Below are positions 18,786-35,754 of a stretch of 64,000 bases of DNA, in pieces. Numbering within the stretch: the first letter of the stretch is position 1; each line of letters opens with the position of its first letter. The stretch covers positions 864,001 to 928,000 of the forward strand of contig OY968764.1 in the NCBI GenBank assembly GCA_963695335.1, in the 5' to 3' direction. The stretch is from an uncultured bacterium. Lineage in GTDB: Bacteria; Babelota; Babeliae; Babelales; Vermiphilaceae. The notes under the pieces were generated by a model, which saw only the letters and a program-made list of their open reading frames with translations, was not told the DNA's origin and made no database searches. Position numbers and translations under genes: made by a program.

Positions 18786-20189
18786 GTGGAGATTTTATCA
18801 ATGCGATTTGACAACGTTTTTGTAGCTCAGATATTGCCTGATACGGTGATTGTATCTGGGCATTTTCCAGAAAATGCAACGTTTTCTATTGATTCACGCT
18901 CGATACAAGAGGGTGATATTTTTGTTGCTATAAAAGGTATAGCTTTTGACGGACATGATTTTCTTGTACAAGCATTTCAAAAAGGTGCAGCGGGAGCAAT
19001 TGTCGCTGAATCAAAAAAAGATAGTTTAAAAAAAATAAAAGATATTGATAGCAAGTTTATTCTTCTGGTTAAAGATCCTGTTGAGGCGTTTATTAAACTT
19101 GCATCAGCATGGCGTTCACAATTTAGTTATCCAGTGATTGCAATTACTGGATCGGTGGGTAAAACATCTACAAAAGAGATGCTGGCGCAAATTATGGCAT
19201 ATGCAGGGAAAAAATATATTGTTTCTCACGGGAATCAAAACACCAGAATTGGTCTTGCGCTGAATATGTTTCGTATGAGAGCTGATCATGAATTGGCTAT
19301 TTTTGAATTGGGTATCAGTAAGCGTGGGGAAATGGCTGAGCTCGCTCATTTATTACGTCCAACATCGGCTGTCATCACTAATATTGGTCATCAACACATG
19401 GATGGTTTGGGATCTTTGAATGACATTGCGCTTGAAAAGCGTGATGTTTTTAAATATTTCATTGAAAATAGTATTGGGATTATTAATGGTGATCAGCCTA
19501 TTCTTGCCCATGTTTCTTATCAGCATCCCGTTATTAAGTTTGGATCAAAAACAACCAATCAGGTGCAAGCGAGAAAAATGAGAGTGTCCGGATCGCATAT
19601 TAGTTTTATATTGAAAATATATAAAAATAAGTATTCGGTTGTATTTAATCATCCGCATGTGGGCGCTGTTTTTAATGTATTAACTGCAACGGCAGCGGCG
19701 CATTGGCTTGGCATTTCTGATGACATTATTATTAATGCAATACAAAAACCATGTGTTGTTGCGGGGCGCTTTGAAGAACGTCAGGTTAATGATAATCGTG
19801 GTATTTTAATTAATGATTGTTATAATGCCAATCCAGAAAGCATGAAGGCTGCATTGCTTGCGTTTCAACAAATAGAGACAAAGTCACCAAAAATTGCTAT
19901 TCTTGGTGATATGTTGGGATTGGGAGTGAATAGCCCATTTTGGCATAGACAAGTAGGACGATTCTTACGTAAAGTACCTTCTTTGAATAAAGTAATTTTG
20001 GTAGGCAATTTGGTTACATGGGTGAAAAAAACAGCTCCTGTAGGTTTGCGTGTTGAGATTGTTGGAACATGGCAAGAAGCAATGAGTAAAATTGAAAGTG
20101 AGCTTGTTGCAAAACCTACCATTTTAGTAAAAGGTTCTCGTGCGATTGGTCTTGATAATTTGGTTTCTAGGTTAACAACACATATATAA
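18786..20189 (+). CDS. murF: UDP-N-acetylmuramoyl-tripeptide--D-Ala-D-Ala ligase
   Basis: IDSR, AITGSVGKTSTKE, NDCYNANPESM, LVKGSR. Confidence 0.95.
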   Translation: MEILSMRFDNVFVAQILPDTVIVSGHFPENATFSIDSRSIQEGDIFVAIKGIAFDGHDFLVQAFQKGAAGAIVAESKKDSLKKIKDIDSKFILLVKDPVEAFIKLASAWRSQFSYPVIAITGSVGKTSTKEMLAQIMAYAGKKYIVSHGNQNTRIGLALNMFRMRADHELAIFELGISKRGEMAELAHLLRPTSAVITNIGHQHMDGLGSLNDIALEKRDVFKYFIENSIGIINGDQPILAHVSYQHPVIKFGSKTTNQVQARKMRVSGSHISFILKIYKNKYSVVFNHPHVGAVFNVLTATAAAHWLGISDDIIINAIQKPCVVAGRFEERQVNDNRGILINDCYNANPESMKAALLAFQQIETKSPKIAILGDMLGLGVNSPFWHRQVGRFLRKVPSLNKVILVGNLVTWVKKTAPVGLRVEIVGTWQEAMSKIESELVAKPTILVKGSRAIGLDNLVSRLTTHI

Positions 20190-20203
20190 TTAAAGAAGTT
20201 CGA

Positions 20204-21115
20204 ATGAGTATGCAAAAAGAAAACACAGATATGTTTTATCATAAAACGGTGATGGTGGATGAAGTTTTAGAATATCTTAATCCTCAACCGGATAAAATAT
20301 ATTGTGATGTTACATTTGGATCAGGCGGACATACAAAAGCTATTTTAAATAAGCAGCAAAAGTGTCGTGTAGTTGCGGTTGATTGGGATGCCACATCAAT
20401 TGACACATATGCGCCAGCTTTGGAAGAAAAATATCAGGATAGATTGCAAATATTGTGGGGTAATTTTTCAAACTTGTACCGATTATTGCAAAAAGCAAAA
20501 ATTGGCAAGGTTGATGGTATTCTTGCAGATTTTGGTACGTCGCAGATGCATATTAAAGAACGTGCAGGTTTTTCCTTTTCACGTGATACTGAGCTTGATA
20601 TGAGAATGTCTCCTGCACATCAGCAAATAACAGCCGAGCATGTTGTTAATAAATCTTCTGAAGAAAAATTATGTGAAATTTTTTGGCAATTGGGGCAAGA
20701 ATCTCATGCAAAAAAAATAGTAGCAGCAATTATTGAAGCTCGACAAAAAAGGCCGATTCACACAACACGTGAATTGGCTATGATTATTGAAAAAGTTGTT
20801 CCTCGTGGACGTTCAAAGATTCATCCAGCGACAAAAGTGTTTCAGGCATTACGTATGTTTGTTAATCAGGAATTGAATAACATCACAGGATTTTTGTCAG
20901 GGGCAATGCAAGTTTTGAAACCTGATGGGTTATTATTGTGCATATCTTTTCATTCTTTAGAAGATCGCATTGTTAAACAGTTCTTTAAAGATAAAGAGGA
21001 AGAAGGAAAACTGGAGATAATTACGAAGCATGTTGTTATACCAACAGCAGAAGAAATAACAAAAAATCCATCATCGCGGTCTGCAAAATTGAGGGTTGCG
21101 CGGTTGATTGGATAA
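20204..21115 (+). CDS. rsmH: 16S rRNA m4C1402 methyltransferase
   Basis: D.TFGSGGH, LDMRM, HPATKVFQALR, ISFHSLEDRIVK, NPSSRSAKLR. Confidence 0.96.
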   Translation: MSMQKENTDMFYHKTVMVDEVLEYLNPQPDKIYCDVTFGSGGHTKAILNKQQKCRVVAVDWDATSIDTYAPALEEKYQDRLQILWGNFSNLYRLLQKAKIGKVDGILADFGTSQMHIKERAGFSFSRDTELDMRMSPAHQQITAEHVVNKSSEEKLCEIFWQLGQESHAKKIVAAIIEARQKRPIHTTRELAMIIEKVVPRGRSKIHPATKVFQALRMFVNQELNNITGFLSGAMQVLKPDGLLLCISFHSLEDRIVKQFFKDKEEEGKLEIITKHVVIPTAEEITKNPSSRSAKLRVARLIG

Positions 21116-21170
21116 TTTTGTAAAAAAATGTGAAAAAAAGATGCATTTTGTTTGACAAAAAAATGTAATG

Positions 21171-23072
21171 CTATACATTAAAGTACGAGCGGTAAAGAAG
21201 CAAAAAACGATACTTATCCTTAAGGATTACAGCAATGGAAATAACGGAAGTTAAAGTATTTCCGGTAACGGATGGTGAAAAATTAAAAGCATATGCGACA
21301 ATAGTCTTTGACAATGCGTTTATTATTCGAGACCTCAAAGTTATTGAGGGAATCAAAGGGCTATTTGTTTCAATGCCATCACGCAAACGTAAAGATGGAA
21401 CATTTCGTGATGTTGTGCATCCCCTAAACCCAGAAACTCGCAGCATGATTGAAGAGCATGTTGTGCATGAATACAAAAAAGTTATGGATCTTGGTGGAGC
21501 GCATCCAGTATCGGATGAAGAGTAGTAGATAATAAATTTGATAATTTTCTTTTGGGGCGTGGCCAAGCGGTAAGGCAACAGGTTTTGGTCCTGTGATCGG
21601 AGGTTCGAATCCTTCCGCCCCAGCCATACATTACCATCGGTTGCTTTCTTGATAGCATCAAATGGTTTTTGTACGTCGTAGACGATGTTTTCATCTTGTA
21701 GGCGAATGTTCTGAAGTACAAGTGTAATTAATTGTCGTCTTTCTTCTAGTTCCGAACTTTCAAATAAATTAAATGCGTGCTTGGTAATTTCAAGCACGTG
21801 TTTTGTTGTGTTATAATAATTATCTTCAGCATCGTTAAGTTGGCTGAGTCGTAGATTGATATCTTCTTTCTGTGCTGTGAATGATGCATGAAACTTGTCG
21901 TATTGTTCGTCGCTAATCTTGTCTTTTAGTTTATCTATGTAGAGTTTATCCATTATGTTGGTAATAGTTTTCAGTTCTCCGGTAAATTTATCGAATTGAT
22001 TGTTATGAAATTCCATTTTATTTAGATGAAGTTCCTGAAGAGTTTCTGCAATCTCTTTCCGTATGTTATCCGGCATTTGAAGAGCTTTAAAAAATTCACC
22101 CAATTGTTTTGTTATTTCATCTTCTCTAATCCATTTTGCCCCGTGTTTGCCATTATATTGCGTGCAATGATAATAGACATGGCCCTTGTGGCGTTCAGGT
22201 GATATTGAGAGTCCACATTCATAGCAACGAATAAGGCCGCGATAGAAGAATGGTAGTCCGGCATATTTAAAAGGTTTCTTTTTGAAGCCATCTTTTATGT
22301 TCTGCACTTGTTGAAACAGTGATTGTGAGACAATAGGTGTATAGCAATGAGGATATGATTTACCTTTTACAATCATGGTTCCATGGTAAAAAGGATTCTG
22401 TAATATTTTAGCAAGATGAGACTTGAACCATGAAATTCCAAAATCAGTTTTGATTTTTTTGCAGAGTAATTCCATTGAATAGCCGCCTGTAGCATAGAGT
22501 TCAAAGGCTGTTTTTACTATAAAGCGATTATGTTCGTCTACAATGATAGCGGTTTTTTCATTTTCAAGTTTAATGTTTTTGTAACCGAATGGTGCTTTCC
22601 CGAGCCATTCTCCTTTGCGTAACTTTTGTTCTTGTGCTCGCTTTACGTTATCGCTGATTGCATCTGAATAATACTTTGCGAGGCCTAGGCTCATGCTAAA
22701 TGTAAATTTCTCAGTAGCAGATATTTTGCTGCTCAATATTTGTCCGTCAGAAACAAAATGTATTTCTATTTCGTCACTGAGCGCTTTTTCATAAAGTAGG
22801 GAAATGCGTTTATCGAAAACGTTTCTTGAAAGACGGTCAACCTTATCAAAACAAACGATGACCTTTTCTTTTTGTTCGAGAATGAAATCTACAATGCGAT
22901 CGAATGCGTCGCGTTGATTCTTGTATGCACTTTCATCGAAGCTGCATAGTCTGACAATCTCGAAATTTTTGTTTTTACAGTAATTTTGAAGGCGTGCTTC
23001 TTGAGCAGGAAGTGAGTTGCCGGCTTCACGTTGTTCTTCTGTGGATACTCTTGCTATAATAATTGCTTTCAT
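21171..23072 (-). CDS. Large serine recombinase (integrase). In the integrated state its last 149 aa are antisense tRNA/spoVG read-through; the native C-terminus lies at 30702-30797
   Basis: ARVST catalytic Ser, KVDRLSR, APFGY, zinc ribbon C..CG...YYHC, coiled coil. Confidence 0.92.
   Translation of the reverse strand: MKAIIIARVSTEEQREAGNSLPAQEARLQNYCKNKNFEIVRLCSFDESAYKNQRDAFDRIVDFILEQKEKVIVCFDKVDRLSRNVFDKRISLLYEKALSDEIEIHFVSDGQILSSKISATEKFTFSMSLGLAKYYSDAISDNVKRAQEQKLRKGEWLGKAPFGYKNIKLENEKTAIIVDEHNRFIVKTAFELYATGGYSMELLCKKIKTDFGISWFKSHLAKILQNPFYHGTMIVKGKSYPHCYTPIVSQSLFQQVQNIKDGFKKKPFKYAGLPFFYRGLIRCYECGLSISPERHKGHVYYHCTQYNGKHGAKWIREDEITKQLGEFFKALQMPDNIRKEIAETLQELHLNKMEFHNNQFDKFTGELKTITNIMDKLYIDKLKDKISDEQYDKFHASFTAQKEDINLRLSQLNDAEDNYYNTTKHVLEITKHAFNLFESSELEERRQLITLVLQNIRLQDENIVYDVQKPFDAIKKATDGNVWLGRKDSNLRSQDQNLLPYRLATPQKKIIKFIIYYSSSDTGCAPPRSITFLYSCTTCSSIMLRVSGFRGCTTSRNVPSLRLRDGIETNSPLIPSITLRSRIINALSKTIVAYAFNFSPSVTGNTLTSVISIAVILKDKYRFLLLYRSYFNV
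21235..21525 (+). CDS. spoVG: SpoVG family nucleic-acid-binding regulator
   Basis: MEITEVKV...KLKAYATIVFDNAF...GLFVSMPSRKRKDGTFRDVVHP. Confidence 0.95.
   Translation: MEITEVKVFPVTDGEKLKAYATIVFDNAFIIRDLKVIEGIKGLFVSMPSRKRKDGTFRDVVHPLNPETRSMIEEHVVHEYKKVMDLGGAHPVSDEE
21553..21626 (+). tRNA. tRNA-Gln (anticodon TTG)
   Basis: Cloverleaf tggggcg...; anticodon arm acagg-ttTTGgt-cctgt; GGTTCGAATCC T-arm; encoded CCA end. Confidence 0.96.
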
Positions 23073-23223
23073 GCTGCTCTGATTTGTTAAGGAAGTTTAA
23101 AAATGGTTTAGAACTATTATTGTAGCATGAAGAAATATCAGTTGCTATGTTATAAATTAGGGTATATTTATTTTTGGGGAATCAATGATTTTTCTACTAA
23201 AATGAAATATCGGTGATAATTTT

Positions 23224-23785
23224 TTATAAGATAAGACTATCGTATGTACTCTCGTGACCAAGAGACTTAGTCGTTGCGCCTACTTTATTACCATTGAACT
23301 CACGCATTTTTAAATACATGTCTTCTCGGTAATCTAGCTCATCAAGAGATAGGCCTTTATATCCTCGATGTGGAACCTTTTGGACATGTTTACAATATTC
23401 TAAAAGGTGAAGGGCTCTATTTTTCTTTACACGTAAGTAAGGAAGAATATTTTGAATGAACTCTGCCACTCGGTTCTTATCTCTCATATACCAATGATAA
23501 ATTGGTTTTGAGTTAGGTCTACTTTTGCGAGCGCCATCGATGTGTACATAACCGAATTTCATTTCATTGACTATAAAGTCAATCGCTTCTGGTTCAATCA
23601 TTGCTATTTTAATACCAGGCAAATAAGTAATAGCCCAATTTTCTACAGTCTTTGGAAACTCCAAAGCTCTGTCAGTTGTTCTATTTTTAGTCTTACGCTT
23701 ATGTTTAAATATCATAAAGCACCCATCTGCATCCATTATTCCTGCTATATACGCCCAATGCGTTTTGCTCTGGTTATTAATGCAT
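23224..23785 (-). CDS. Single-motif LAGLIDADG homing endonuclease; start apparently frameshifted
   Basis: The frame upstream of the track start reads NNQSKTHWAYIAGIMDADG; ILPYLRVKK motif; nearest ATG (ATGCATTAA) is out of frame. Confidence 0.75.
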
Positions 23786-23897
23786 AAATATCCTTTAATG
23801 TTTGTTGTATCTATATCGTGATGGCATACATTGATATTTATGTTTAGACTTTTCGTGTAATCGCTCTCGGTTTAATGCCCCAATATTAACTGGCTAA
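23228..23897 (-). ncRNA. Group I intron remnant containing the LAGLIDADG ORF (boundaries approximate)
   Basis: Minus strand: P3 CCGAGAG (23870-23864) pairs with CTCTTGG (23264-23258); GCAACGACTA pairs with CGATAGTC as P7; 5' hairpin gcccc/ggggc. Confidence 0.6.
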
Positions 23898-23941
23898 AGG
23901 GGCAGAAAGCGTTGTAGGTGTAGTTAATATATATACACTCC

Positions 23942-25174
23942 TTACGTAGCTTTTTTTTGTTCAAACCAGGTTTCGATTTTTTTTCTATGCTGGTATGCAG
24001 AACAATTAAAGCATTGTTTGCCAGGTTTAATGTTTGGAAGTTCAGGTGATGTTATGCATTGTAAAATTTCATCTAGTGTTTCTTCGATCCATGAATAATC
24101 AATCGAGACTTTTATAACTGTAGTTTGAAACTTTAGCTTTCGTTGGTACGTATCAATCGTGCTAAAAGGGTTAAAAACATATTCATTTGAAGAAGTAGTT
24201 TTGCCGAGTATAACATCTGTATAGTCATATGTTGATATAACAGGTTTATCTAATATTAAATAGCCAATATCACTTGTATGAAAGTTATTTTTGTTCAACA
24301 GATAAGAGTAAAAAGAAATTTGTCGTCTATAGGATGCGCCTAGCGCATCATCTATGCTTATCATGTCTTTGGATGTTGTTTTAAAGTCAACAACAATAAG
24401 TTGTCCTGATTGATTTTGTAATACTTCGTCAATGATTCCAGTTAGAATGAAATTACGAGACTTATCATGAAACCTAATTCCGCCTTGCCCATAGTGTGAA
24501 TTTTGCCATATTGGTATATCTTTGTGATTAAATGGAATGGCTGAAATTCTCTCGCTCATTAGTATAGGATGAGCTTTTTCTACCTGTCGACATTGGTGAA
24601 ATTCATCTTTTAGGAGATTGTCATTTGCATTAGAAAGCGTAAATTTATCGTTATCGTAATCTCTTTTAATTTGACATTTTTTGACAAGATAAAAACATCG
24701 CTTGCAATCGAAATATGATTTAATATCATTGTGGCTGATGGTAATAGATTCGGTGATAGATCTATTTAATGGTAATGAATCAACGACGTCTGTAACTGTT
24801 AGGCCAAGCACATCGATGTATGAACGAATTTTTAAGAATTTTATAGAAAGTTCGAATTCTGGATGATCATTATTTACTTGAATGGGATATCGTTTTTCAT
24901 AGTATTGACCCGATATGTCATGATGCAAAATAAAGCTTAAAGCATAATGATCCAGGTCATAAACGACTTGTTGTTTTATGAAAAGATTATTTTTGATAAG
25001 TTCATTATTTATCGTATTGATGAGATTGGTATAGTCAGCATCAAAATCTTTATGAGTGAGAGTTATAGGTTCTGTTTTAATTCTCTGAGTTGCTTCCCAT
25101 AATTCGTTATAGGATGGATTATCAGCAAGTTCAAAAAAGAAACAAGGAAGGTTTCGGCGAATGTGTTTTTCCAT
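23942..25174 (-). CDS. PD-(D/E)XK nuclease, RecB/Cas4-like, with extra N-terminal domain
   Basis: DCKRCFY, GIIDEVL, IVVDFKT, QISFYSYLL, C-terminal QCFNC. Confidence 0.8.
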   Translation of the reverse strand: MEKHIRRNLPCFFFELADNPSYNELWEATQRIKTEPITLTHKDFDADYTNLINTINNELIKNNLFIKQQVVYDLDHYALSFILHHDISGQYYEKRYPIQVNNDHPEFELSIKFLKIRSYIDVLGLTVTDVVDSLPLNRSITESITISHNDIKSYFDCKRCFYLVKKCQIKRDYDNDKFTLSNANDNLLKDEFHQCRQVEKAHPILMSERISAIPFNHKDIPIWQNSHYGQGGIRFHDKSRNFILTGIIDEVLQNQSGQLIVVDFKTTSKDMISIDDALGASYRRQISFYSYLLNKNNFHTSDIGYLILDKPVISTYDYTDVILGKTTSSNEYVFNPFSTIDTYQRKLKFQTTVIKVSIDYSWIEETLDEILQCITSPELPNIKPGKQCFNCSAYQHRKKIETWFEQKKAT

Positions 25175-25409
25175 AGAATATTTAGTTTAAGGATTACCAA
25201 TTTAATAAGTATCTTCAAAACTAAACTCATCTTTAAATAATAAAGCTTAATTGCTATAAAATAAGCTTTATTATTAATAAAGTATAAACAAATTGTTAAT
25301 ATTTGTCGAGTAAATTATTTATATTAACAAATTAAATACGAACAATATTGATTGGGTAATGAAAGATTTTTATGTTATTTTCTATATATTTCGATAAAGG
25401 AGGTCTGCG

Positions 25410-26042
25410 GTGACTCATTGGGGATGGTATTGGAAAATAAAAAAGAAACATTTAGCAAAAAAAAATTGTTCTTCTATGGTAAAAATAGATTCGTTTCATC
25501 TCTATAAAAATAATATGATGACGGGATTTAGGGTTGATCCACTTGATATTAATGCTGAGCCAGAGCCAAATTTTTTAAAGATTGTCTATGGGAAACGTAA
25601 AGAGCATTCTTATATAATTCGAGTTGCCAGATTATCTTGTAATTACGGTGGATTTAGAAGTTATTTTCGATGTCCTTTGTGTGATAAACGCATGAGATTT
25701 CTTTATTTTGCAGAGAGAAGTATTTTTCTATGTCGTAAGTGTTTAAACCTTGGATATGACACTCAGCGTTTTAGGCCTACTATGCGATATGAGTATATTA
25801 GTCAAAAGGTGAAGAAGTTTGTGCGGAATAAAGGTGGAGATTTGGATTGTTATAAAAAACCACCTCGCATGCATGAGGATACGTACCAAAGACTTAAAAG
25901 TAAGCAATTTTACTATGAACATAAATCATATCAGGCAACTAATCAGGAACTTCGTAGATGGCATGGTAAAAAAATGGAAACATATTTGGATAGTTTTTTC
26001 GATTATGTTGATGAGTCCAAAGATTGGCGTAAAATAACCTAA
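25410..26042 (+). CDS. Zinc-finger-type hypothetical protein of integrated elements
   Basis: GGFRSYFRCPLC...FLCRKCLNLGY.TQ...KPPRMH..TY.RL; ggagg RBS. Confidence 0.7.
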   Translation: MTHWGWYWKIKKKHLAKKNCSSMVKIDSFHLYKNNMMTGFRVDPLDINAEPEPNFLKIVYGKRKEHSYIIRVARLSCNYGGFRSYFRCPLCDKRMRFLYFAERSIFLCRKCLNLGYDTQRFRPTMRYEYISQKVKKFVRNKGGDLDCYKKPPRMHEDTYQRLKSKQFYYEHKSYQATNQELRRWHGKKMETYLDSFFDYVDESKDWRKIT

Positions 26043-26069
26043 TGGACTAACACTACGAAGTATTGATAT

Positions 26070-26246
26070 GTTGAATAAAATTGAAGCAGGTTGATGTTGT
26101 TATCAATTCATATAATGGTTTTACAAAAGGGTTTTTTTGACTGTTTCATATAAAGGTTGAAATATTGAATCCCCCCGTTAGTTTTGATGGCAAAAGGAAT
26201 AGGGGGGCTGTATTCAATTCTTCAACTTAGATTGTTTTGTGGATAA
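26070..26246. promoter_or_regulatory. Candidate replication origin of the integrated element
   Basis: Three GTTGAA-n-ATTGAA motifs, two forming an inverted pair around C6/G6 tracts; perfect DnaA box at 26238-26246; directly downstream of the primase. Confidence 0.45.
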
Positions 26247-26290
26247 AAAGGTTTTGATACTACTGCTTTGTTTACGATTGAGAGTTAGGT

Positions 26291-28636
26291 TCAATTGTTT
26301 TCAGGCTCATCAATTATGTAATATTCATCGTCCTTTTTTTTCTTACCTTCTTTACATATAAGTTTGCCTTGGTCAACAAGCTCGCTCAATATAGGGTCAT
26401 ATTCCTTGGCTCCGCCATCAAATTGTTTTGAGGTTAATATTGTTTGGCGCGTTACGGTTTTTTTATCTTGGATACGTTTACTAATCCAGTTTATTAAGGT
26501 GCGACATTTTCGTTGGTGATGCGATTCTCCAAATTCTTGTTCTAAAAATCCAATAGTAGATTTAATTGCAGGGTTGAGGAAATGAAAAGCCTTTATTATT
26601 GCATCTCCCGATATTTCTATACTGTTGTGATCTATAAAAAGTTGCATTATCATTGCGATTTTTAGAAGAGCAGGACTCCATCTTTTTAGATATGGTTGAA
26701 TCAGTTTAATCGTTTTATCGTTGCAAGCTCGTGCTGCACAATAAATAAGTATATGGTAACTATGAAAGATTCTTCTTGCATCTGGAGTTAGAGAAAAGGA
26801 TCGTTCTTCTCCTATAGATGTGATAATACGGTCTATATACATTTTGAAAGTCATTTCTTGATTCTCATCAGATACTGCCTGACGAAAAGGCAATGCCGGT
26901 GGAATTTTATCGTTGGATGGTGGAGTTAGTATAATGAGTCGAGCAAAAAAACCGCTTGGAATATCACTCAATTTCATATTTTCTTGAATCCAAGATGCTG
27001 TAGATACACCACAAATCGATATGAAGGGTTTTTTTAATATACAATCTCCTTGTGTTTTAGTTTTATAGCGATAACATGTGGGCACATCATAGAGCTCTGT
27101 CATAATAGCTTTGAAATCATTGTTATGTGTTTTATCCAGGTTTTGTAACCATCCTCCAAATTCACTGGCGAAGATAACCCCTTTATGCTCTTGGGCTAAG
27201 TATTCCAAAAGAGCTTCAGCGGTTATTTTAGTTGGAAGGATAATATTTTCTCTTGATTTGTTTAATTGTTCTTCGGTTAAAGAGCTTTGTTGTTGTGATC
27301 CTGTTTGCAATTCTTTTATTTGAGCAAGTATCTGTGTTTGCAAGTCATAGGCAAGCTTTGCTCCTTTATTGAGAGCGGTGGTTTTGAATTGTCCGCTATT
27401 TGCAATACAAAGAATCCAAAGATTGCTATAAAGAGTTTGGAAGTATTCTCCTTCTGGTATAAAAACTTTGGTGCCTAAATAACCAGACATCATAGAGATT
27501 ACGGATGCTGTAATTATAATTGGATGTGCGTTAGTGGTCTTTTGTATTGACGATATATATTCTCTGAGTGGAGTAGGAAATTTTTTTAATTCAAATTTTT
27601 TGCATGGATCATTGTCACTGAGAAAGTGTTCTCGAGCAACTCTTTTGCCGGCTTCGCTTTTGGCATAGGCTTGAATGAGTTGCTCTCTTACTTCATCAAT
27701 GCCTGCTATTTGAGCAAGATCATTAAAATCAGTGGCATCTTGTTTTTTTTGGTTTGGAAACTCAGGTATAACAAACGAGCAGTCATTAAATTTATTGATT
27801 GCGTCATGAGCTTTCATTGTGCCTATTTCATCATTATCTGCGGCAACAATAAAGATTCTTTGAGGGAATCTTTTTTTTAAATTATCCAGAACTACTGAGA
27901 TATTACCCGCATCAAATGCTACAATTGTTGGTTTTTTGATTGCTTCGTAAATAGATGCACATGTTGCATAACCTTCGCCAATGAACATGACATGTTTATC
28001 ATCAGTTAAATTGCCTATTAAATGGTAGTTTCCTTTTTTCTCGCCACCAGGAAAAAATTTTTTACATGTTTTTCCTTCTTCCATGGAAATAAATTGTAAA
28101 GATCGTAGTTCATCTTCATTATTATACAGAGGAATAACAAGAGAGGGGTATCCTTGTAGATTATTGCTAAATCTGACGGTATTGCTTGGTTCAATACCTT
28201 TGACACTGATGTATTGTAGGTAGTCATTTGTAGATGGCGTTATGGAACATTGCTCCCAAAAGCTTTGAGCTGATTTTGCAGCTTTTTCTTGGTTTTCACG
28301 AATATTATTTTCTGTCTTTAATATATTGAGGCGAGCAATTTCTTTTAATTCTGCGCGTTCGTCATCATTAACAGAAGTGTCTTGATCAAAAGATTTATAT
28401 GTATGTTTTATTCCATCTTTCCATGACGCAAAAACAACATTCAAGAAATGGTTACCTTGAGATGAAGTGCCTTCATAGGCAATATACCATTCATCTTTTT
28501 TATGTTTATTATTGTTGCTTGAGTATCGATGAATTTTAGCATCAGTAATAAGATCACCATCAAAGGTGAGGCCCTTCTCTGCCATATATGATTTACAATT
28601 TTCTTTTAAATTAAATCTTTTTTCGATATTATGCAT
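26291..28636 (-). CDS. Toprim primase fused to DUF3987-like helicase/ATPase
   Basis: LRSLQFI, IGEGYATCAS, AADND, TDFNDL, then NSGQFKTT, TAEALL, SEFGGW. Confidence 0.88.
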   Translation of the reverse strand: MHNIEKRFNLKENCKSYMAEKGLTFDGDLITDAKIHRYSSNNNKHKKDEWYIAYEGTSSQGNHFLNVVFASWKDGIKHTYKSFDQDTSVNDDERAELKEIARLNILKTENNIRENQEKAAKSAQSFWEQCSITPSTNDYLQYISVKGIEPSNTVRFSNNLQGYPSLVIPLYNNEDELRSLQFISMEEGKTCKKFFPGGEKKGNYHLIGNLTDDKHVMFIGEGYATCASIYEAIKKPTIVAFDAGNISVVLDNLKKRFPQRIFIVAADNDEIGTMKAHDAINKFNDCSFVIPEFPNQKKQDATDFNDLAQIAGIDEVREQLIQAYAKSEAGKRVAREHFLSDNDPCKKFELKKFPTPLREYISSIQKTTNAHPIIITASVISMMSGYLGTKVFIPEGEYFQTLYSNLWILCIANSGQFKTTALNKGAKLAYDLQTQILAQIKELQTGSQQQSSLTEEQLNKSRENIILPTKITAEALLEYLAQEHKGVIFASEFGGWLQNLDKTHNNDFKAIMTELYDVPTCYRYKTKTQGDCILKKPFISICGVSTASWIQENMKLSDIPSGFFARLIILTPPSNDKIPPALPFRQAVSDENQEMTFKMYIDRIITSIGEERSFSLTPDARRIFHSYHILIYCAARACNDKTIKLIQPYLKRWSPALLKIAMIMQLFIDHNSIEISGDAIIKAFHFLNPAIKSTIGFLEQEFGESHHQRKCRTLINWISKRIQDKKTVTRQTILTSKQFDGGAKEYDPILSELVDQGKLICKEGKKKKDDEYYIIDEPENN

Positions 28637-28698
28637 GTCAGTTCCTATTAAGTGTGAGCCACTGAAGATGATGCTTCAGTGGCTTCTTTTTGGTTATA

Positions 28699-28971
28699 TT
28701 AAGTGAGTATGATTAATTTTTGTAGGACTTCGCATGAAAAATTGTGCTGTTCATTTGAATCGATCAAACCATACGAGCAAAACAATATGAGATTTTCGCT
28801 GTCGCAGCTTTCGATAGATGCTATGTACGATCCTGGATTATCTTTTTTCTTTAAGTGATGTCTTTGTCCATCGGTATATAAGCGCCCTAGTAGTACAAAC
28901 CCTTTTTTCTCCATGTCCCGTCTTGTTAGAAACTTGAAGTAGGGTAGATAGTTAGTTTGTATTATATTCAT
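28699..28971 (-). CDS. Hypothetical protein of the integrated element
   Basis: 90-aa ORF co-oriented with the primase; gagg RBS. Confidence 0.5.
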   Translation of the reverse strand: MNIIQTNYLPYFKFLTRRDMEKKGFVLLGRLYTDGQRHHLKKKDNPGSYIASIESCDSENLILFCSYGLIDSNEQHNFSCEVLQKLIILT

Positions 28972-29108
28972 TGTTTCTTCCTCTGGTGCGCTTGTTGTGC
29001 TGTAGGAGTTATCTTTTCCCTATGGTCTATTTGAATCAAAAGTTGGAAGAATGAAATGAGTCTTTGTTTTTCTTCAGGCGTGAGTTTTGTTGGGATTGCA
29101 TTACTTAC
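28968..29108 (-). CDS. Small hypothetical protein (non-canonical or mutated start)
   Basis: aggag RBS, then open frame ...LTPEEKQRLISFFQLLIQIDHREK..., with stop overlapping the next ATG. Confidence 0.35.
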   Translation of the reverse strand, partial: VSNAIPTKLTPEEKQRLISFFQLLIQIDHREKITPTAQQAHQRKKQ

Positions 29109-29126
29109 TAATTCTCCTTTATTCAT

Positions 29127-29369
29127 TTAGTATTCCTTGGTGTAAATATCTGCGCCATTGTGGGCATGCATGCGGTCTTCAAGGAATGTAAGGACTGCTT
29201 TTTTTGGATACAAAATTTTGTGTTTCAGCTTGATGTAAGCGGGACTATTTGATCGTTTTCTGGCTAGATATGCTGCATCAATTGATGCATAGATTCCCAG
29301 ATATACGAGGTCTTGTGCTGATAAGAATTCGTTCATTTGGTTGAGCTTGTCTGATAAAGCATTATTCAT
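29127..29369 (-). CDS. AlpA/excisionase-like winged-HTH protein
   Basis: EFLSAQDL...R.R.NSPAYIKL..KILYPK..V..FLE pattern; upstream of the primase. Confidence 0.65.
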   Translation of the reverse strand: MNNALSDKLNQMNEFLSAQDLVYLGIYASIDAAYLARKRSNSPAYIKLKHKILYPKKAVLTFLEDRMHAHNGADIYTKEY

Positions 29370-29533
29370 GGAAAGCCTCTTTATTTAAGAGAGTTCAATG
29401 AAGATGTGAGAGGAAATGCTTTAGGATATATATACAAAAAAATGTATATATTATATATTGATATTGTTATGAGGGTAACAATCCCAAAACATTAGAAAGC
29501 CAGTGAGTTGCCGCTTACTGGTTTTCGCTCTTC

Positions 29534-30604
29534 TTACTCTTCAATAAGAATCTCATTGATTATATTTATGGAATTTTGATTAAGAGCGAGCCATGTTGCT
29601 CGCATAGTATCTGGTTGTACTCGTCTGATTTTTGCCTCCTTACTTGCGTTTGTAAATGAATGATTTAGTCGAGATCGCGTTAATGATCTTCCATTTCTTG
29701 TAATAAATATGTGATTATTATCAGCTCGTTGTTCTTGTGTTGATGCTATGTAATCGTTTAATTTTTTCATGAACGTTTTTGGATATTCTATTGGTTTTTC
29801 ATATTTGATTTTATTTTTGTATTGTAAAAATCGAATGATATTATTTGAAAAATCGATTTGTTCAAGGGTTAATGTTAAAACATCAGAAATACGTACAGCT
29901 CCATAAAACATAGTGCTTGAAATCAGATAATCCCGATAATTATTTTTTGCTAAGAATGTATTAAATTTTTTTAACTCATCTAGAGAAAGAGCTTTTTGCG
30001 ATGTTTTTATAGTTGAGCGATAAACAGATCTTTTTTGAGAAGTTATGGGTAATGCTCTTCGGAACCATCCATTAGTAATACGTTCGAGGAATATACTGAA
30101 TGAAGTGTAACATTCGATACGAGCTATTTTAGCTGTCTTAGATAAATCATTCATGTGTTCTATGTATTGTAGTATTGATTTTTGGTTAATATGCCTTAAA
30201 CCACCTATACTGAATGCTCTGCCATCCGCAAAAGTAGTTGGGATAATATTTTTGTCCATTAGGTCTGTCATGTACGATGTGTATTTGATCTGCGTAGTGT
30301 TTTTTTCAAGCGTTATAAGCCAATTTTGAATGACTGCTGTGATAGGCATATAATCAAGCTCTTCAATTAATTCGTATTGGGCCCGATTTACAGCATTTCG
30401 AAGATTGAATAATTTAAGACTGTCATCTGTACGCTTGAGGATTGGATATTGCTTTTCTTTGGCATGTAATTCTTCTAGGAGTATTCTTCCTTGCGCAAAT
30501 TGCTCATCGTTTTTTTGTAGAATGATGATATCAGGGGATTCTTTTTGAAGTAGATTTGTTTCTTTATCTGATAGCTGTCGCATTAAAAGTTTCGTAGGTA
30601 ACAT
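29534..30604 (-). CDS. Tyrosine recombinase resembling chlamydial plasmid pGP7/pGP8 integrases; probably catalytically incomplete
   Basis: ARIECYTSF..FL.R.T.G, YRDYLI...GAVRISDVL; HxxR replaced by DTMR; no C-terminal Tyr. Start moved to ATG 30604 (aaagga RBS). Confidence 0.75.
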   Translation of the reverse strand: MLPTKLLMRQLSDKETNLLQKESPDIIILQKNDEQFAQGRILLEELHAKEKQYPILKRTDDSLKLFNLRNAVNRAQYELIEELDYMPITAVIQNWLITLEKNTTQIKYTSYMTDLMDKNIIPTTFADGRAFSIGGLRHINQKSILQYIEHMNDLSKTAKIARIECYTSFSIFLERITNGWFRRALPITSQKRSVYRSTIKTSQKALSLDELKKFNTFLAKNNYRDYLISSTMFYGAVRISDVLTLTLEQIDFSNNIIRFLQYKNKIKYEKPIEYPKTFMKKLNDYIASTQEQRADNNHIFITRNGRSLTRSRLNHSFTNASKEAKIRRVQPDTMRATWLALNQNSINIINEILIEE

Positions 30605-30806
30605 ATCATTCCTTTGTTTGTATCTTTTCTTGAATGAGAAATATGTTACCTCAACAACAGGTTTCGCGCAAGTTTTATTTGCCAACGCGCATAATGTTTT
30701 GTTAAACAGATAAGTGAAGCTCAGAAAATACTGTTTGGATGTGTTGTAAACTGAAATCAAAAGTAATTGATCTGTTAAGGAATGAGTCCACTAGGGGCAG
30801 CCATAC

Positions 30807-31089
30807 TACGCTAAAGCTTCGTATGGCAAGCCATACCTTTCAAATGATTGATATAAAAAATTTAAAGAAGTTTGATAGCTGAGCGTAGTATGCCCTTCGA
30901 AGCCTTCGGCGAAGTAGGGCTCTTTTTTTATCCTTGTAATTTTTTCAATGGTAAATCAAATTACGCTAAAGCTTCGTATGGCAAGCCATACCTTTCAAAT
31001 GATTGATATAAAAAATTTAAAAAAGTTTGATAGCTGAGCGTAGTATGCCCTTCGAAGCCTTCGGCGAAGTAGGGCTCTTTTTTTATCCT
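30807..31089. repeat. 128-bp direct duplication (period 155) carrying palindromic repeats
   Basis: 30807-30934 and 30962-31089 differ at 1 position; each holds tacgctaaagcttcgtatggcaag and tgcccttcgaagccttcggcgaagtagggc. Confidence 0.92.
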
Positions 31090-31127
31090 AATTTTTTAAT
31101 TTTAGATAACATTTCTTTAATTTATAT

Positions 31128-31370
31128 ATGTATTACGTATATCTCATCAAGTCTCTGAAAAACCCTCATAAAACTTATATAGGTTTTACTAATGATATTG
31201 AACAACGTATGGAAAAACATAACAATGGTGCATCTATTTATACCTCTGATGATAGACCTTGGAAATTAGTTACATACATTTGTTTTGATGATCAATCTAA
31301 AGCCGTTGCATTTGAAAGATATCTTAAAGTTGGTTCAGGGCATGCATTTGCTCAGCGAAGATTGTGGTAA
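31128..31370 (+). CDS. Small stand-alone GIY-YIG nuclease
   Basis: YYVYLIKS...YIGFT...R...HN.G...YT...RPW.LV......A..FERYLK.GSG. Confidence 0.92.
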   Translation: MYYVYLIKSLKNPHKTYIGFTNDIEQRMEKHNNGASIYTSDDRPWKLVTYICFDDQSKAVAFERYLKVGSGHAFAQRRLW

Positions 31371-31429
31371 TTTATAAAAGTCATGTGAAAAACACATGGC
31401 TTTTTTTTTGTGTGTTTTAGTTTTGTTAT

Positions 31430-31801
31430 TCACTTGCAAATATAACTTTTAATGCATTCCCCATCATAGGTCAGTTCAATCAAGTCTGATTTTTCAGTGA
31501 AGCACACATTGTGCGGCAGAGGGTCTTTCAATTGTAACGTAAGATCATCATTTGAAGCACCGAGAAATAGTTTTAATTCCAAATTTTCTGACAACTGAAT
31601 TTTTTGTGATTCTCCTGGGTTAATTACTGAATTTTTAGTAGTAATATCATAATTTGACTTATTATGAAGCACAATAGAAGGTTTGTGACTATTTTTTCTA
31701 AAAGCTGGTTTACGAACAAGTTCTCCTTGGCGAGGATATTCTGAACTGAGTGCATATGAACTTATTAATATCATACTACTTGTTATAATGAGATGCTTCA
31801 T
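31430..31801 (-). CDS. Secreted hypothetical protein
   Basis: 123-aa ORF with signal peptide. Confidence 0.6.
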   Translation of the reverse strand: MKHLIITSSMILISSYALSSEYPRQGELVRKPAFRKNSHKPSIVLHNKSNYDITTKNSVINPGESQKIQLSENLELKLFLGASNDDLTLQLKDPLPHNVCFTEKSDLIELTYDGECIKSYICK

Positions 31802-31916
31802 AACAAACCCTTTTGGTTATAAACATTGTATTGATTATTTTGGCCATTGATAAATATAAGATATTGCATACAATATTGGGAATAATTGTACCGTTTTTAT
31901 TTTTAAAGGTGAATGT

Positions 31917-32690
31917 ATGACAAAAAAGATAGTAGGTTTTGCGATCGTTGTTTTTAGCATCACGTCCCCCCTTAATGCTATGTTGGTAAAAGCATTAAAG
32001 AACTCAGCGCCAAAAGCATTTCAGCAACAACGTTTTTATGTTCCTAAGATTACCAGTCAAGAGAAGATGAGAGAGTTACAATTTAATCGGCAATATCTAT
32101 TTGAGCAAGTTATTGAGGTCGATGATGTTGAGGTGGCAGGGATGTTGATGGGAAAATTTGGATTGAATGTTTATGATGATTTAATAGAAATAGCCCAATC
32201 TCCTGAGATGCTACGATTTCTTGAAGAGTATGGTTGTGATATTCGTAAGATAGATGATAGCCATGGTGGGAATTATTTACATAAAATCATTTCGGATGAA
32301 GGTAGAGAAGATACAGAATTCACAAAAGATTTTTTTATAAAATATGCTCTTGATAAAGGAGTTAATCCGCATGCAGTAGATAATTTTGGTGAAAATTTGT
32401 GGCATAAGTTACTGACGCGACCGTTTACAGTTAGTCACGAAGAGACGCATTTGCTAGATCGTGCAAGATTATTACGTTCATTGTATGTTAATCCTCATCA
32501 TAAAGATGAGCATGGAAGAAGTGCAATAGAGTTGGTGCAAGGTAGAATGCATGATTTGGAAGAGACAAAAAAGAGATGTGAATCCTATACGTACACTTAC
32601 GAAGATGCTGTTTCTCAACTAAAAACATATCACAAGTTATTAAAAATTATGAATAGCGAAGATTGTAATCAAAGAGAAAGTGCTTTATAA
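31917..32690 (+). CDS. Secreted protein with degenerate ankyrin-like repeats
   Basis: GGNYLH, KGVNPHAVDNFGENLWH, KDEHGRSAIE. Confidence 0.7.
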   Translation: MTKKIVGFAIVVFSITSPLNAMLVKALKNSAPKAFQQQRFYVPKITSQEKMRELQFNRQYLFEQVIEVDDVEVAGMLMGKFGLNVYDDLIEIAQSPEMLRFLEEYGCDIRKIDDSHGGNYLHKIISDEGREDTEFTKDFFIKYALDKGVNPHAVDNFGENLWHKLLTRPFTVSHEETHLLDRARLLRSLYVNPHHKDEHGRSAIELVQGRMHDLEETKKRCESYTYTYEDAVSQLKTYHKLLKIMNSEDCNQRESAL

Positions 32691-33133
32691 ATCGCTGAGC
32701 TCGAGAAGTTTTCGATTATATCAGTTACGATAACAAGCTGTGCGCCAATTGCGTCAGCTTGTTTTTGTTTGTTGCTTTGTTGAGGATCGTTATTAGTTAT
32801 TGCAATGATGTTCGGTTTGATATTTTTCACTAATGCTAGGTAATCATCAAACCCATTCAGTTGAGGCAGCATAATGACGTGATCAACAGAGTGTAGTGCT
32901 AATAAGTTGTGTGCACGTTCTTTTTGTGTATGTACCGGTGTTCTCTGTTTATAATTGATAATCCGCTCATCTGGTTCAAGAGCTACGATGACATAATCAC
33001 CAATTCCTTTTGCTTTTTGTAGAAACTGTATGTGTCCAAAATGGAGTATATCAAAACAACCGCCAACAAGGACAATTTTTTTATTCGGAAGAGTTAAAAT
33101 AGTTTGGGTAGGGTCATAGTATTGATAATTCAT
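32669..33133 (-). CDS. Cytidylyltransferase-like (HIGH) nucleotidyltransferase
   Basis: GGCFDILHFGHIQFL; C-terminal SSSAI. Confidence 0.88.
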   Translation of the reverse strand: MNYQYYDPTQTILTLPNKKIVLVGGCFDILHFGHIQFLQKAKGIGDYVIVALEPDERIINYKQRTPVHTQKERAHNLLALHSVDHVIMLPQLNGFDDYLALVKNIKPNIIAITNNDPQQSNKQKQADAIGAQLVIVTDIIENFSSSAIYKALSL

Positions 33134-33247
33134 TCTTTAAACGTAATCTATTTGTTTATTTTGATCAATTAAATTGAGTTTTTTATATATCCATGTACTA
33201 TTTCTGAAACATTTATTTATACAATCAAATAATAAAAAGAGGTGTAA

Positions 33248-34108
33248 ATGGAATTCGTGCGAGTTTATGTAAATATTATTACATTATTTGCGTTATTTAG
33301 TGTTGTGCAAAATTATGCAGAAGGATTTGCAGCTGGAACATTGGTAAAGGTTCCTAATGGGTATGAAAGGATAGAAGATTTAAAAGTTGGCGATGTAGTT
33401 ATTTGTTGGGATGACACACACAATTTTGTTGAGAGACCAATTTGTTATGTTGCAAGAAAATCAATACCTCATTATGTATCTGTTGCGATAGATGATGAAT
33501 TTTTAGAGCTTTCTGCAAACCAGCAGCTGTATGATACAGCAACTGCATCATGGATTATGGTTTCAGATTTTGATAATGCTCTCATAAAGTTTAAAGAAGA
33601 ATCTGTTGATGTTTATGTAATAACTGTTGGGCAATATCACAATTTTTTTGTATCAAAAGCAGATATTTGTGCACATAATTTTATTCCTGCCATTGTTGCA
33701 GGAATATCTTTTTTATTTGGATCTGGCGTTGAAATTGCAGGTGTTAGTTGTGGTTTAGCTTCATTGGGCACTTATGTTGGGTATAAATGGCATAAAAATA
33801 AACAGGGTAGTGTTGAAGTAGGTTGTATTTCAATTGATAATTTGCAAGCAGATGATCTTTATAACAGTAATGATGCACAGGCACCAGGCATGCCAACAGA
33901 AAAAGATGGCTATCATCCGCCTAAAAATTGGGATGGGAAAAAAGTGAAACATCCAAGAAATGGTACTGTTGGATGGCCGGATGATAAGGGTAATGTATGG
34001 GTTCCTACGGGAGTTGGACCTAAAGCACATGGAGGACCTCATTGGGATGTTCAACATCCAAATGGTAAAGATTATGATAATGTTTATCCTGGTGGTAAAG
34101 TAAGGTAG
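33248..34108 (+). CDS. Secreted Hint-domain polymorphic toxin with putative nuclease tip (HWDVQ, toxin-37-like)
   Basis: Signal peptide; GFAAGTLV...IEDLKVGD...HNFFV...AHN; hydrophobic linker; HGGPHWDVQ. Confidence 0.8.
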   Translation: MEFVRVYVNIITLFALFSVVQNYAEGFAAGTLVKVPNGYERIEDLKVGDVVICWDDTHNFVERPICYVARKSIPHYVSVAIDDEFLELSANQQLYDTATASWIMVSDFDNALIKFKEESVDVYVITVGQYHNFFVSKADICAHNFIPAIVAGISFLFGSGVEIAGVSCGLASLGTYVGYKWHKNKQGSVEVGCISIDNLQADDLYNSNDAQAPGMPTEKDGYHPPKNWDGKKVKHPRNGTVGWPDDKGNVWVPTGVGPKAHGGPHWDVQHPNGKDYDNVYPGGKVR

Positions 34109-34128
34109 TATACATAGGGAAATTAAAT

Positions 34129-34398
34129 ATGGGTTCAGGAATCATTTTGAGATGTTCACCGTTGCGATTTTATACAAATACTGATGAAACATTGTTTTTT
34201 AATTGGCTTAAAAAAATTAAGTCTATTGTGCATGTTGAAGGAATAGGTAGAGAATTACATTTAAGTTTCGCATCTAATAATATACCAAGCAAAGATTTAC
34301 GTGAACTTATGGGATTGTTTGATAGGTATAAATTTGATAATACTCAGCTTAAAGTATTTATGAATGAGGGTAATAAGGATTGGTTTGAAGAAGTCTAA
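34129..34398 (+). CDS. Putative immunity protein
   Basis: 89-aa ORF directly after the toxin, same strand. Confidence 0.6.
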   Translation: MGSGIILRCSPLRFYTNTDETLFFNWLKKIKSIVHVEGIGRELHLSFASNNIPSKDLRELMGLFDRYKFDNTQLKVFMNEGNKDWFEEV

Positions 34399-34410
34399 AG
34401 AGTTATATAT

Positions 34411-35055
34411 ATGCTTAAAAATGTTTTGTATTTTGGTTCAAAGTCGCAATCGCGACGTATGCTTCTAGAAGAATCACAGATCCCTTTTACTGTTGTTGGT
34501 CAAAATGCTGATGAATCGCAATGCGATTGGGGATTGCCGTTGCCACAATTGGTTCTGAGCATTGCATTGCATAAGATGGATCATGTTGTGCTGCCCGATG
34601 GTAAACATGAAGGTGAGGTATGCTATGTGCTCACTGCTGATACCATGTCGCATGATAAAATGGGTATAATTCATGGCAAACCAGTTGATAGAGCTGATGC
34701 AATTGCAAAAATAAGAGCAAGTGCGCAAGGCTCTTTTTTATGCACTGCGTTTTGTGTGGATAGAAGGGTATGGCGCCCAGTCCGCCGAAGCCTTGATGAA
34801 GGAGGAAAAAATAATGTTTGGGTTGTTGATGAAAGAATTACGGATGTAGTTTCTGCTGAATTTATATTTTATGTACCAGAAAGTTGGATTGATATTTATC
34901 TTGAACATACACCATTCTTGGACGTGTCTGGTGGAATGGCGATTGAAAAGTATGGTAATCAATTTTTGAAAAATGTACAAGGGTCATATTCAACCATTAT
35001 TGGATTACCACTTTTTGAAGTGCGTGAGGCGCTTGAGAAGTTGGGATTTTTTTAG
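34411..35055 (+). CDS. maf: Maf-family nucleotide pyrophosphatase
   Basis: GSKSQSRRMLL, TADT, GKP, GSYSTIIGLP. Confidence 0.9.
   Translation: MLKNVLYFGSKSQSRRMLLEESQIPFTVVGQNADESQCDWGLPLPQLVLSIALHKMDHVVLPDGKHEGEVCYVLTADTMSHDKMGIIHGKPVDRADAIAKIRASAQGSFLCTAFCVDRRVWRPVRRSLDEGGKNNVWVVDERITDVVSAEFIFYVPESWIDIYLEHTPFLDVSGGMAIEKYGNQFLKNVQGSYSTIIGLPLFEVREALEKLGFF
34777..34806. repeat. 30-bp family C repeat, in frame in maf (PVRRSLDEGG)
   Basis: ccagtccgccgaagccttgatgaaggagga aligns without gaps to 2717-2746. Confidence 0.75.
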
Positions 35056-35057
35056 AA

Positions 35058-35100
35058 AAGTGCGCTTGAATTCTTCAACAAGTTCAGAATGAGCGCACTT
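35058..35100. repeat. Family A repeat, possibly acting as a terminator
   Basis: aagtgcgct...ttcttcaacaagttcagaatgagcgcactt between convergent genes. Confidence 0.8.
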
Positions 35101-35152
35101 ATATTTTATGATGGGGTCCCCAATTTTGAGTGAAATGAAAATTGGGGTTTAA

Positions 35153-35620
35153 TTAATGGATGTTGCCTTTAGTAATAGGCTTCCATTGCTTAAGAAATTC
35201 TTTACACAGCTGCTCTTTTGCATTCATGTGTGGGTTGTGATCAAGTTTTTTTGTTGTGTTTTCTATGCTCGATCGTAATGTTTCATTATCCAAAAGTGAT
35301 GAATCAAAATGATCGATTGTAGGAAGTAAGTTTTTTTCTCGTGCTTTTTGTTCTACATGAGTATTAATAGCCTCGCCAAGAAGTATTTCAAGCAGTTCAA
35401 AGAAATCAACAATGCCGTGGTGCATTTCTTCCAGTATATTGGGGTCAGACACGGTTGTAGCTTTTTGTATACTATCATGCAATCCATGCGCAACGGCCTT
35501 GGATATAATTTTCTTCAATTTGTCAGTATCATGTTGTCCAAGCCATCTTAATAAATGGAGCAGTTCATACGAAAGTGCGAATTGTGAATTGTTGTCATGA
35601 GAAAATGAATCATTATTCAT
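35153..35620 (-). CDS. Hypothetical protein
   Basis: 155-aa ORF, helical composition, RBS-like aagg. Confidence 0.7.
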   Translation of the reverse strand: MNNDSFSHDNNSQFALSYELLHLLRWLGQHDTDKLKKIISKAVAHGLHDSIQKATTVSDPNILEEMHHGIVDFFELLEILLGEAINTHVEQKAREKNLLPTIDHFDSSLLDNETLRSSIENTTKKLDHNPHMNAKEQLCKEFLKQWKPITKGNIH

Positions 35621-35754
35621 ACTATGCCTTTCGTGATTGAGGACTAATCATACACCTTACTTATTTTGAATTTGCACTATTGAACGTTATTTTTAAAACA
35701 TTTTTTTAAAGTTGGTGTAATTACTGTATACTTTAAAGCTCCAGGATTATTTTT

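Follow-up and report, generated by a model that had tools for sequence, protein, structure and literature searches.

A 9177-bp mobile element at the tRNA-Gln CCA end of a Babeliales genome, likely placed by its own large serine recombinase

Large serine integrases of phages and genomic islands, such as TP901-1, A118/LI, Bxb1, phiC31, CcrAB and XisF, share a resolvase catalytic domain, a Recombinase domain and a zinc ribbon; their attachment sites have only short identity, and their genes lie at the end of the element. The same features are found in an element that we describe here from a 64,000-nt stretch of an uncultured bacterial genome (contig OY968764.1, positions 864,001 to 928,000; the whole stretch is called the window, and its own numbering is used throughout). 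With a repeat-to-repeat length of 9177 bp, the element occupies the CCA end of a tRNA-Gln gene, where it was quite probably placed by its own large serine recombinase (LSR). This enzyme differs from the known large serine integrases in two respects: its probable target is the CCA end of a tRNA, and its attachment site would lie inside its own reading frame, so that integration would swap the last 31 residues.

In the SSV-type integrases of archaeal viruses and plasmids, attP likewise lies within the integrase gene, the target is also a tRNA gene, and integration splits the gene. These enzymes are tyrosine recombinases and a large part of their gene is split off, whereas the window gene encodes a serine enzyme and only its last 31 codons are detached. 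P4-like satellites and phage-inducible chromosomal islands (PICIs) resemble the window element in having an integrase, a small helix-turn-helix (HTH) protein and a primase-helicase within about 10 kb at a tRNA; unlike them, the window element has no capsid-redirecting or packaging genes, no helper prophage found in its genome, and a serine integrase. The P4 alpha protein carries D5_N/Pox_D5-type domains; in the window protein, the helicase part is DUF3987, and Pfam reports no D5_N/Pox_D5-type domain. Judged by description, the closest published analogue in lifestyle is the tycheposon of Prochlorococcus. Of 937 tycheposons counted there, 27 (937 minus 910) carry a large serine recombinase (bioRxiv 10.1101/2020.12.28.424599). 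They are likewise small, tRNA-specific and free of capsid and conjugation genes, and they combine an integrase and a primase/helicase with variable cargo; the window element has the same tRNA site-specificity, the same pair of integrase and primase/helicase, and no capsid or conjugation genes. Tycheposons belong to another host phylum, and the portion of their description on which this comparison is based mentions neither an integration-split integrase nor a dead tyrosine recombinase. As for serine recombinases in general, the Islander paper states that they are not known to target tRNA genes (PMC4383910).

Our literature search, from whose coverage most subscription journals are absent, returned nothing relevant on serine recombinases of Dependentiae, Babeliales or Patescibacteria, or on serine integrase genes split by integration; the literature searched contains no description of phages, plasmids or genetic tools for Dependentiae or Babeliales. 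The LSR family analysed here is apparently unpublished, and what this locus contributes is the fixed register of CCA and Trp codon, the dead tyrosine recombinase and the Babeliales host. Members of the Dependentiae and Babeliales are uncultured or hard-to-culture parasites of protists.

The integration site and its empty counterparts

The window lies in a genome assembled as one contig of 1.37 Mb, 94% complete by markers, and those relatives of its proteins that carry names belong to Candidatus Babeliales or Dependentiae. The sequence CAGCCATAC occurs exactly twice in the window, once at each end of the element, and its left copy takes in the 3' end of the only tRNA gene in the window (Table 1). 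It is exactly 9 bp long, because the adjoining bases differ on both sides. Taken by itself the repeat is weak evidence, since a mean of 0.32 occurrences is expected by chance and 3 of 100 shuffled sequences contain two or more matches.

The left flank of the element, rsmH-spoVG-tRNA-Gln, is present in 30 of 31 related genomes, and nine same-genus loci with this flank were compared against window positions 19000-36000. None of the nine matches the interior of the element (21662-30806), and in seven of them homologues of the window genes at 31592-35641 are reached within 1.5 kb of the tRNA. In the closest relative, a sister species (G005), tRNA-Gln stands without the element: similarity to the window ends at 21629, CAGCCATAC and a short hairpin come after the tRNA, and a homologue of the window gene at 31732 lies about 430 bp further on. 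Given these loci without the interior, and the similarity in the sister species that breaks off at the last base of the core, the original prediction of an integrated element was right about both ends, and the search for an empty site in relatives that it had proposed speaks in favour of mobility.

Two further sequences bear on the same site. Another genome of the genus (G001) has no element genes at its tRNA-Gln, and about 40 bp following that tRNA (L028:2112-2160) match the 3' end of the window LSR gene; judging from this match, they are a scar left where a related element was deleted from this site. In addition, a soil-metagenome contig (run X3) continues past 21629 with sequence about 26/30 identical to window positions 30807-30836, and looks like an empty-site allele of some related strain.

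The sequence immediately right of the element (30807-31370) consists of two tandem copies of a 155-bp hairpin unit, followed by an 80-aa GIY-YIG gene; the stem of the unit begins in the tRNA CCA end. This is the sole strong tandem repeat found (155 bp x 1.8, 30807-31089), and it lies outside the element. The same kind of hairpin follows the far ends of the related elements L130 and L136 and of the element at tRNA-Glu described below. From its position, the GIY-YIG hairpin element may be the right arm of the attB used by the integrase.

The serine recombinase and its detached tail

The gene abutting the tRNA encodes the resolvase catalytic domain, the Recombinase domain and the zinc ribbon of large serine recombinases (PF00239, 1.9e-20, residues 3-156; PF07508, 1.4e-10; PF13408, 1.6e-6), and it matches the integrase family phrog_95 at 6e-69. 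Its N-terminus, MKAIIIARVSTEEQ, aligns with the homologues and reads ARVSTEEQ as they do, and the Ser in this motif is presumably the nucleophile. The best match of solved structure is the catalytic domain of TP901-1 integrase (E 1.1e-4); matches to XisF and CcrB in NCBIfam are weak and fall far under the cut-offs of these families.

The reading frame of this gene crosses the left junction, reading V-W-L through the core, where the W codon (TGG) is antisense to CCA. The open reading frame (ORF) of the integrated gene runs on antisense through tRNA-Gln and spoVG to 21171, which adds 152 codons for a total of 633 aa; this 633-aa ORF is already present in a protein collection (P0121), as an annotation artefact. 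At the far end of the element, the peptide VWLPLVDSFLNRSITFDFSLQHIQTVFSELHLSV and a stop codon are encoded on the same strand as the LSR and in frame with the core. Over 34 aligned residues, this orphan tail has 17 identities with the C-terminus of P0149, an uncut homologue of 516 aa (E 3e-10); the tail is open for 31 codons and stops one residue before the end of P0149. Because the orphan tail matches this C-terminus, excision would rebuild an LSR of about 515 aa. A hidden Markov model (HMM) built from eight tails scores the window tail at only E 2.7, because the subtype formed by the window and P0149 has 15 extra residues; the pairwise comparison is the valid one here.

The relatives repeat this arrangement. 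The 3' end of a convergent tRNA lies exactly 4 nt beyond codon 481 both in the window and in 31 of 36 LSR loci of relatives; the tRNAs at the latter are Asp, Glu, Arg, Gln or Met. With the tRNA end fixed at this distance, the Trp codon TGG of the LSR is always the antisense of CCA. Of the five loci without that geometry, three carry an intact tail with LRTF(N/R)W. Among the 119 LSR homologues listed, 79 have 1-6 residues beyond the conserved W, at least 22 continue into an antisense T-arm, and nine have a tail bearing the (L/F)R(T/S)F motif. Far-end tails are present in L130 and L038 (E 5e-6 and 1.7e-5), and the P-arm sequence GTCCACTAGGGG is common to the window and L130. The window element thus has both the fixed distance to the tRNA and the detached far-end tail that mark LSR elements directed at the CCA end.

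A second LSR of the same genome, 57% identical, abuts tRNA-Glu(TTC); a homologous tail and a 10-bp core are found at a distance of 5.65 kb. This second element (G000:C1:494318-499976; L209:318-5976; 5.65 kb) encodes two proteins of about 400 aa and a HigBA-like pair (HTH_3/Gp49). An 11-mer at G000:514031 was considered as its attachment site and rejected, since it has no tail frame ahead of it, whereas such a frame is present at the 10-mer at 499967. The window element itself is present in a single copy. The LSR clade is found in 30 of 61 relatives (E <= 0.001) and, at E <= 1e-100, in 28 of 151 genomes from the order; because it is this frequent, it is probably one of the principal channels of gene flux in such reduced genomes.

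Considering the orphan tail together with the fixed geometry beside tRNAs, we take the LSR as the integrase: it is likely that the serine recombinase, and not the protein of tyrosine-recombinase fold encoded near the other end, integrated the element. The empty site of the sister species, the orphan tail and the geometry at 31 of 36 loci speak, indirectly, for the LSR as the putative catalyst of recombination between attP and attB.

The tyrosine-recombinase-like protein, the mechanism and competing explanations

The tyrosine-recombinase-like (YR-like) protein departs from XerA (5hxy) at the catalytic positions: HxxR is replaced by DxxR, the next His by Ala, and the chain stops 21 residues after that Arg, before the GH...Y segment, leaving the catalytic set R-K-H-R-H/W-Y incomplete and without the nucleophile Tyr. 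The 149 representatives listed for this family, some of which are fragments, were classed by a simple rule on a MAFFT alignment: 60 have the canonical HxxR...GH...Y, 67 lack both the His and the GH...Y segment, 10 are mixed, and 12 are not aligned at the Arg. His and GH...Y are both missing from twelve of the 13 closest representatives, and the 60 canonical ones are more distant; three more close homologues, as well as the copies in L034, L038 and L149, end alike. By these alignments, the protein belongs to a branch of a genuine recombinase family that has degenerated but is conserved; it is predicted to be catalytically dead, and it is very unlikely to act as an integrase. Both recombinase folds named in the original prediction are thus present, but the tyrosine-type protein, without the catalytic His and Tyr, would not be a working integrase.

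The block of YR-like gene, HTH gene and primase-helicase gene recurs in L034, L038 and L149, with the HTH gene kept between the other two; in other related elements, unrelated genes stand in that position. In L130, L037 and L033, the ORFs located upstream of the primase-helicase were considered as diverged YR-like proteins and rejected, with YR-like HMM E values of 0.05-0.29. The order in L038 is tRNA-Gln, LSR, YR-like, HTH, primase-helicase, and that in L037 is primase-helicase, zinc ribbon, PD-(D/E)XK nuclease, LSR, tRNA-Gln. Elements without a YR-like gene also lie at tRNAs, namely L130, L037, L033 and the tRNA-Glu element of G000.

As for the nature of the element, the absence of virion genes and the presence of a primase-helicase, both claimed by the original prediction, are borne out in Pfam and PHROGs. 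In the nine ORFs of the element, no terS, capsid, Psu/Sid/Delta, Ppi or Stl-like gene is found in Pfam, PHROGs, NCBIfam or PADLOC, and among 35 cargo ORFs taken from five related elements there is no match to virion or conjugation families. What these five elements carry as cargo is ankyrin, GNAT, SSB and SpoVG-like proteins. One SpoVG-like gene (L130:9674-9952; PF04026, 1.2e-9) lies directly upstream of the primase-helicase gene, and the host's own spoVG adjoins the integration site in the window. In the genome as a whole, Phage_capsid (HK97), Terminase_6N, TerL_ATPase and Phage_portal have no match, and neither do VirB4, VirD4 and the MOB relaxase; for both sets the control genomes were positive. 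Relatives of the primase-helicase occur in three of 61 related genomes and, with 41-48% identity, in some ten assemblies of Babeliales/Dependentiae, with metagenome contigs reaching 61%; the best viral contig in IMG/VR matches at 36% identity and covers the C-terminal half only (residues 339-781). On this gene content, the best reading is that of an integrative, plasmid-like element that is probably self-replicating.

We propose the following course of events. The attP site would lie inside the LSR gene, and the crossover would take place in or beside the Trp codon TGG. Integration would then replace the tail of the LSR, and excision would restore the longer enzyme together with a circle of 9.2 kb, which the Toprim-DUF3987 primase-helicase of the element would copy. 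The YR-like protein, predicted to be inactive as a recombinase, may serve as a DNA-binding accessory, perhaps with the AlpA-like HTH protein, controlling excision or replication. A more far-reaching version, which we regard as rather unlikely, is that the element belongs to a so far undescribed serine integrase family, very common in Babeliales, whose members aim at the universal tRNA CCA end in a fixed TGG/CCA register. The free and the integrated forms would make two enzymes, with and without the conserved 31-residue tail; the tail swap could be a built-in switch of direction, acting in place of a recombination directionality factor or alongside one, and the dead tyrosine recombinase would be a DNA-bending partner.

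Several observations weigh against an element that is still mobile and moved by its own LSR. The integrated LSR has a foreign extension of 152 codons and may no longer work. The part of the tail that is widely shared is short, and its best-conserved 11 or so residues could reflect a constraint on the DNA of the attP half-site rather than on protein function. The LAGLIDADG gene has no canonical start ahead of its motif, a sign of some decay. Neither iterons nor tandem repeats that could mark an origin of replication are found inside the element. In one run search, only three soil runs of a single study contained the DNA (shares 0.12, 0.06 and 0.00); no excised circle and no attP/attB joint appears among the Logan contigs, which are thin (scattered, 150-220 nt). 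Finally, terminal direct overlap is found in none of the 25 related metagenome contigs tested.

Some of these observations fit an immobilised relic, in which one past integration was followed by loss of excision, the LSR having lost its tail and gained a foreign extension. The 633-aa ORF running into the antisense of tRNA and spoVG, the possibly startless LAGLIDADG gene, the single genome copy and the lack of junction reads in thin contig sets all agree with it, and the 40-bp scar in G001 implies that such elements decay. We nevertheless consider a relic unlikely: all large genes are full length compared with their homologues, the tail frame is still open for its 31 codons to within one residue of the end of P0149, and replacement of the tail is the normal integrated state, as seen at 31 of 36 loci, and thus not itself a sign of decay. 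Another alternative, one of the two offered by the original prediction, is a phage satellite of P4/PICI type, which upon infection by a helper would be excised, replicated and packaged in helper capsids. Small size, lack of capsid genes, a tRNA site, and a primase-helicase with a weak AlpA-like HTH protein give the element a satellite layout; PICI-like tycheposons with similar modules exist (bioRxiv 10.1101/2020.12.28.424599), and phages of Dependentiae may be unknown or unrecognisable. Beyond the primase and the weak HTH, however, no P4 or PICI hallmark is matched in Pfam or PHROGs: a capsid-redirecting or packaging gene is missing from the nine ORFs and virion families from the 35 cargo ORFs, the single-contig genome has none of the capsid, terminase and portal matches by which a helper prophage was sought, and the similarity of the primase-helicase to viral contigs is low and partial. 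A satellite is therefore quite unlikely.

Integration could also be ascribed to the YR-like protein, on the pattern of classical tRNA islands, with the serine recombinase being cargo or a resolvase. The protein does have the Phage_integrase fold, its gene adjoins attR, and classical tRNA islands use tyrosine integrases (PMC4383910). Against this stand the replaced and missing catalytic residues, which 60 more distant relatives retain, the position of the gene distal to the tRNA, the LSR frame and tail that span both junctions, and the elements that occupy tRNAs likewise without a YR-like gene; an integrase role for the YR-like protein is hence the least credible of these explanations, and we give it hardly any weight.

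If the element was placed by its LSR, serine integrases can use tRNA ends, which the older literature reserves for tyrosine integrases (PMC4383910). Moreover, since each integration would rewrite the gene of the enzyme, one could test directly how directionality is controlled. For building a vector, too, it would be natural to start from an element that is compact, replicates with an enzyme of its own, and has a defined integrase, a 9-bp core and a defined tRNA target.

Other genes of the element

All genes of the element lie on the minus strand except that of the zinc-ribbon protein (Table 1), and the long genes match their homologues in length and look intact; for the primase-helicase, full-length homologues measure 778-826 aa.

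Table 1. Features of the element and of its target, in window positions
Feature	Position	Strand	Basis
tRNA-Gln(TTG), integration target, stays intact	21553..21626	+	ARAGORN; Rfam tRNA 62.1 bits
attL core	21621..21629	.	6 terminal nt of the tRNA, CCA among them, and the 3 nt beyond; similarity to the G005 empty site ends at 21629
Large serine recombinase, residues 1-481	21630..23072	-	PF00239, PF07508, PF13408; phrog_95
LAGLIDADG endonuclease-like gene, free-standing, single motif	23224..23772	-	I-MsoI E 1.4e-4; phrog_5046 1.5e-12
Cas4-like PD-(D/E)XK nuclease	23942..25174	-	PF12705 8.4e-9; PF01930 1.8e-5; PADLOC Cas4 4.7e-11
Palindrome, 17-nt arms, 94% complementary, in divergent intergenic region	25236..25275	.	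palindrome search
Zinc-ribbon protein, CxxC...CxxC, conserved	25410..26042	+	adjoins primase-helicase in 7 related loci
Toprim + DUF3987 primase-helicase, 781 aa, presumed replicase	26291..28636	-	PF13362 2e-8; PF13148 7.6e-24; phrog_2249 DNA primase 7.2e-48
90-aa ORF	28699..28971	-	ORF call; no Pfam or PHROGs family match
52-aa ORF	28968..29126	-	weak homologues upstream of primase-helicase in L039 and L148
80-aa AlpA/excisionase-like HTH protein (weak)	29127..29369	-	only PDB match AlpA 8c3t, E 0.12
YR-like protein, 356 aa from Met53 of the listed ORF	29534..30604	-	PF00589 5.6e-18, profile positions 3-154 of 172
Orphan LSR 3' tail, 31 codons + stop; also P arm of attP	30702..30797	-	in frame with the core; P0149 match
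attR core	30798..30806	.	second of two exact copies

The gene list of the original prediction stands for the serine recombinase, the Cas4-like nuclease, the Toprim primase-helicase, the protein of Phage_integrase fold and the LAGLIDADG-type gene; its AlpA-like protein is weakly matched, and two of its items, an intron with the LAGLIDADG gene and an origin of replication, are not recovered. No Rfam intron family, and therefore no group I intron, is matched in positions 19000-34000, where the only matches are the tRNA and a sub-threshold snoRNA. The LAGLIDADG motif WAYIAGIMDADG lies upstream of the only canonical start codon of its gene (23736), and this placement suggests that the gene may be decayed or may use a non-canonical start. 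The search for an origin gave only the palindrome, which is possibly an operator or an origin.

No solved structural relative of the primase-helicase is found at E <= 0.01. The Cas4-like nuclease has a homologue at the same position in L037. For the zinc-ribbon protein, Pfam, PHROGs, NCBIfam and PADLOC contain no family and the Atlas only hypothetical, unnamed clusters; its AlphaFold model, made from an alignment of seven sequences, has a pLDDT of 53.6 and an unusable fold. A paralogue of this protein, 59-64% identical and encoded in two frames, is found at G000:C1:453086-453612 (L030:5086-5612); it is probably frameshifted, and it lies far from any primase-helicase gene.

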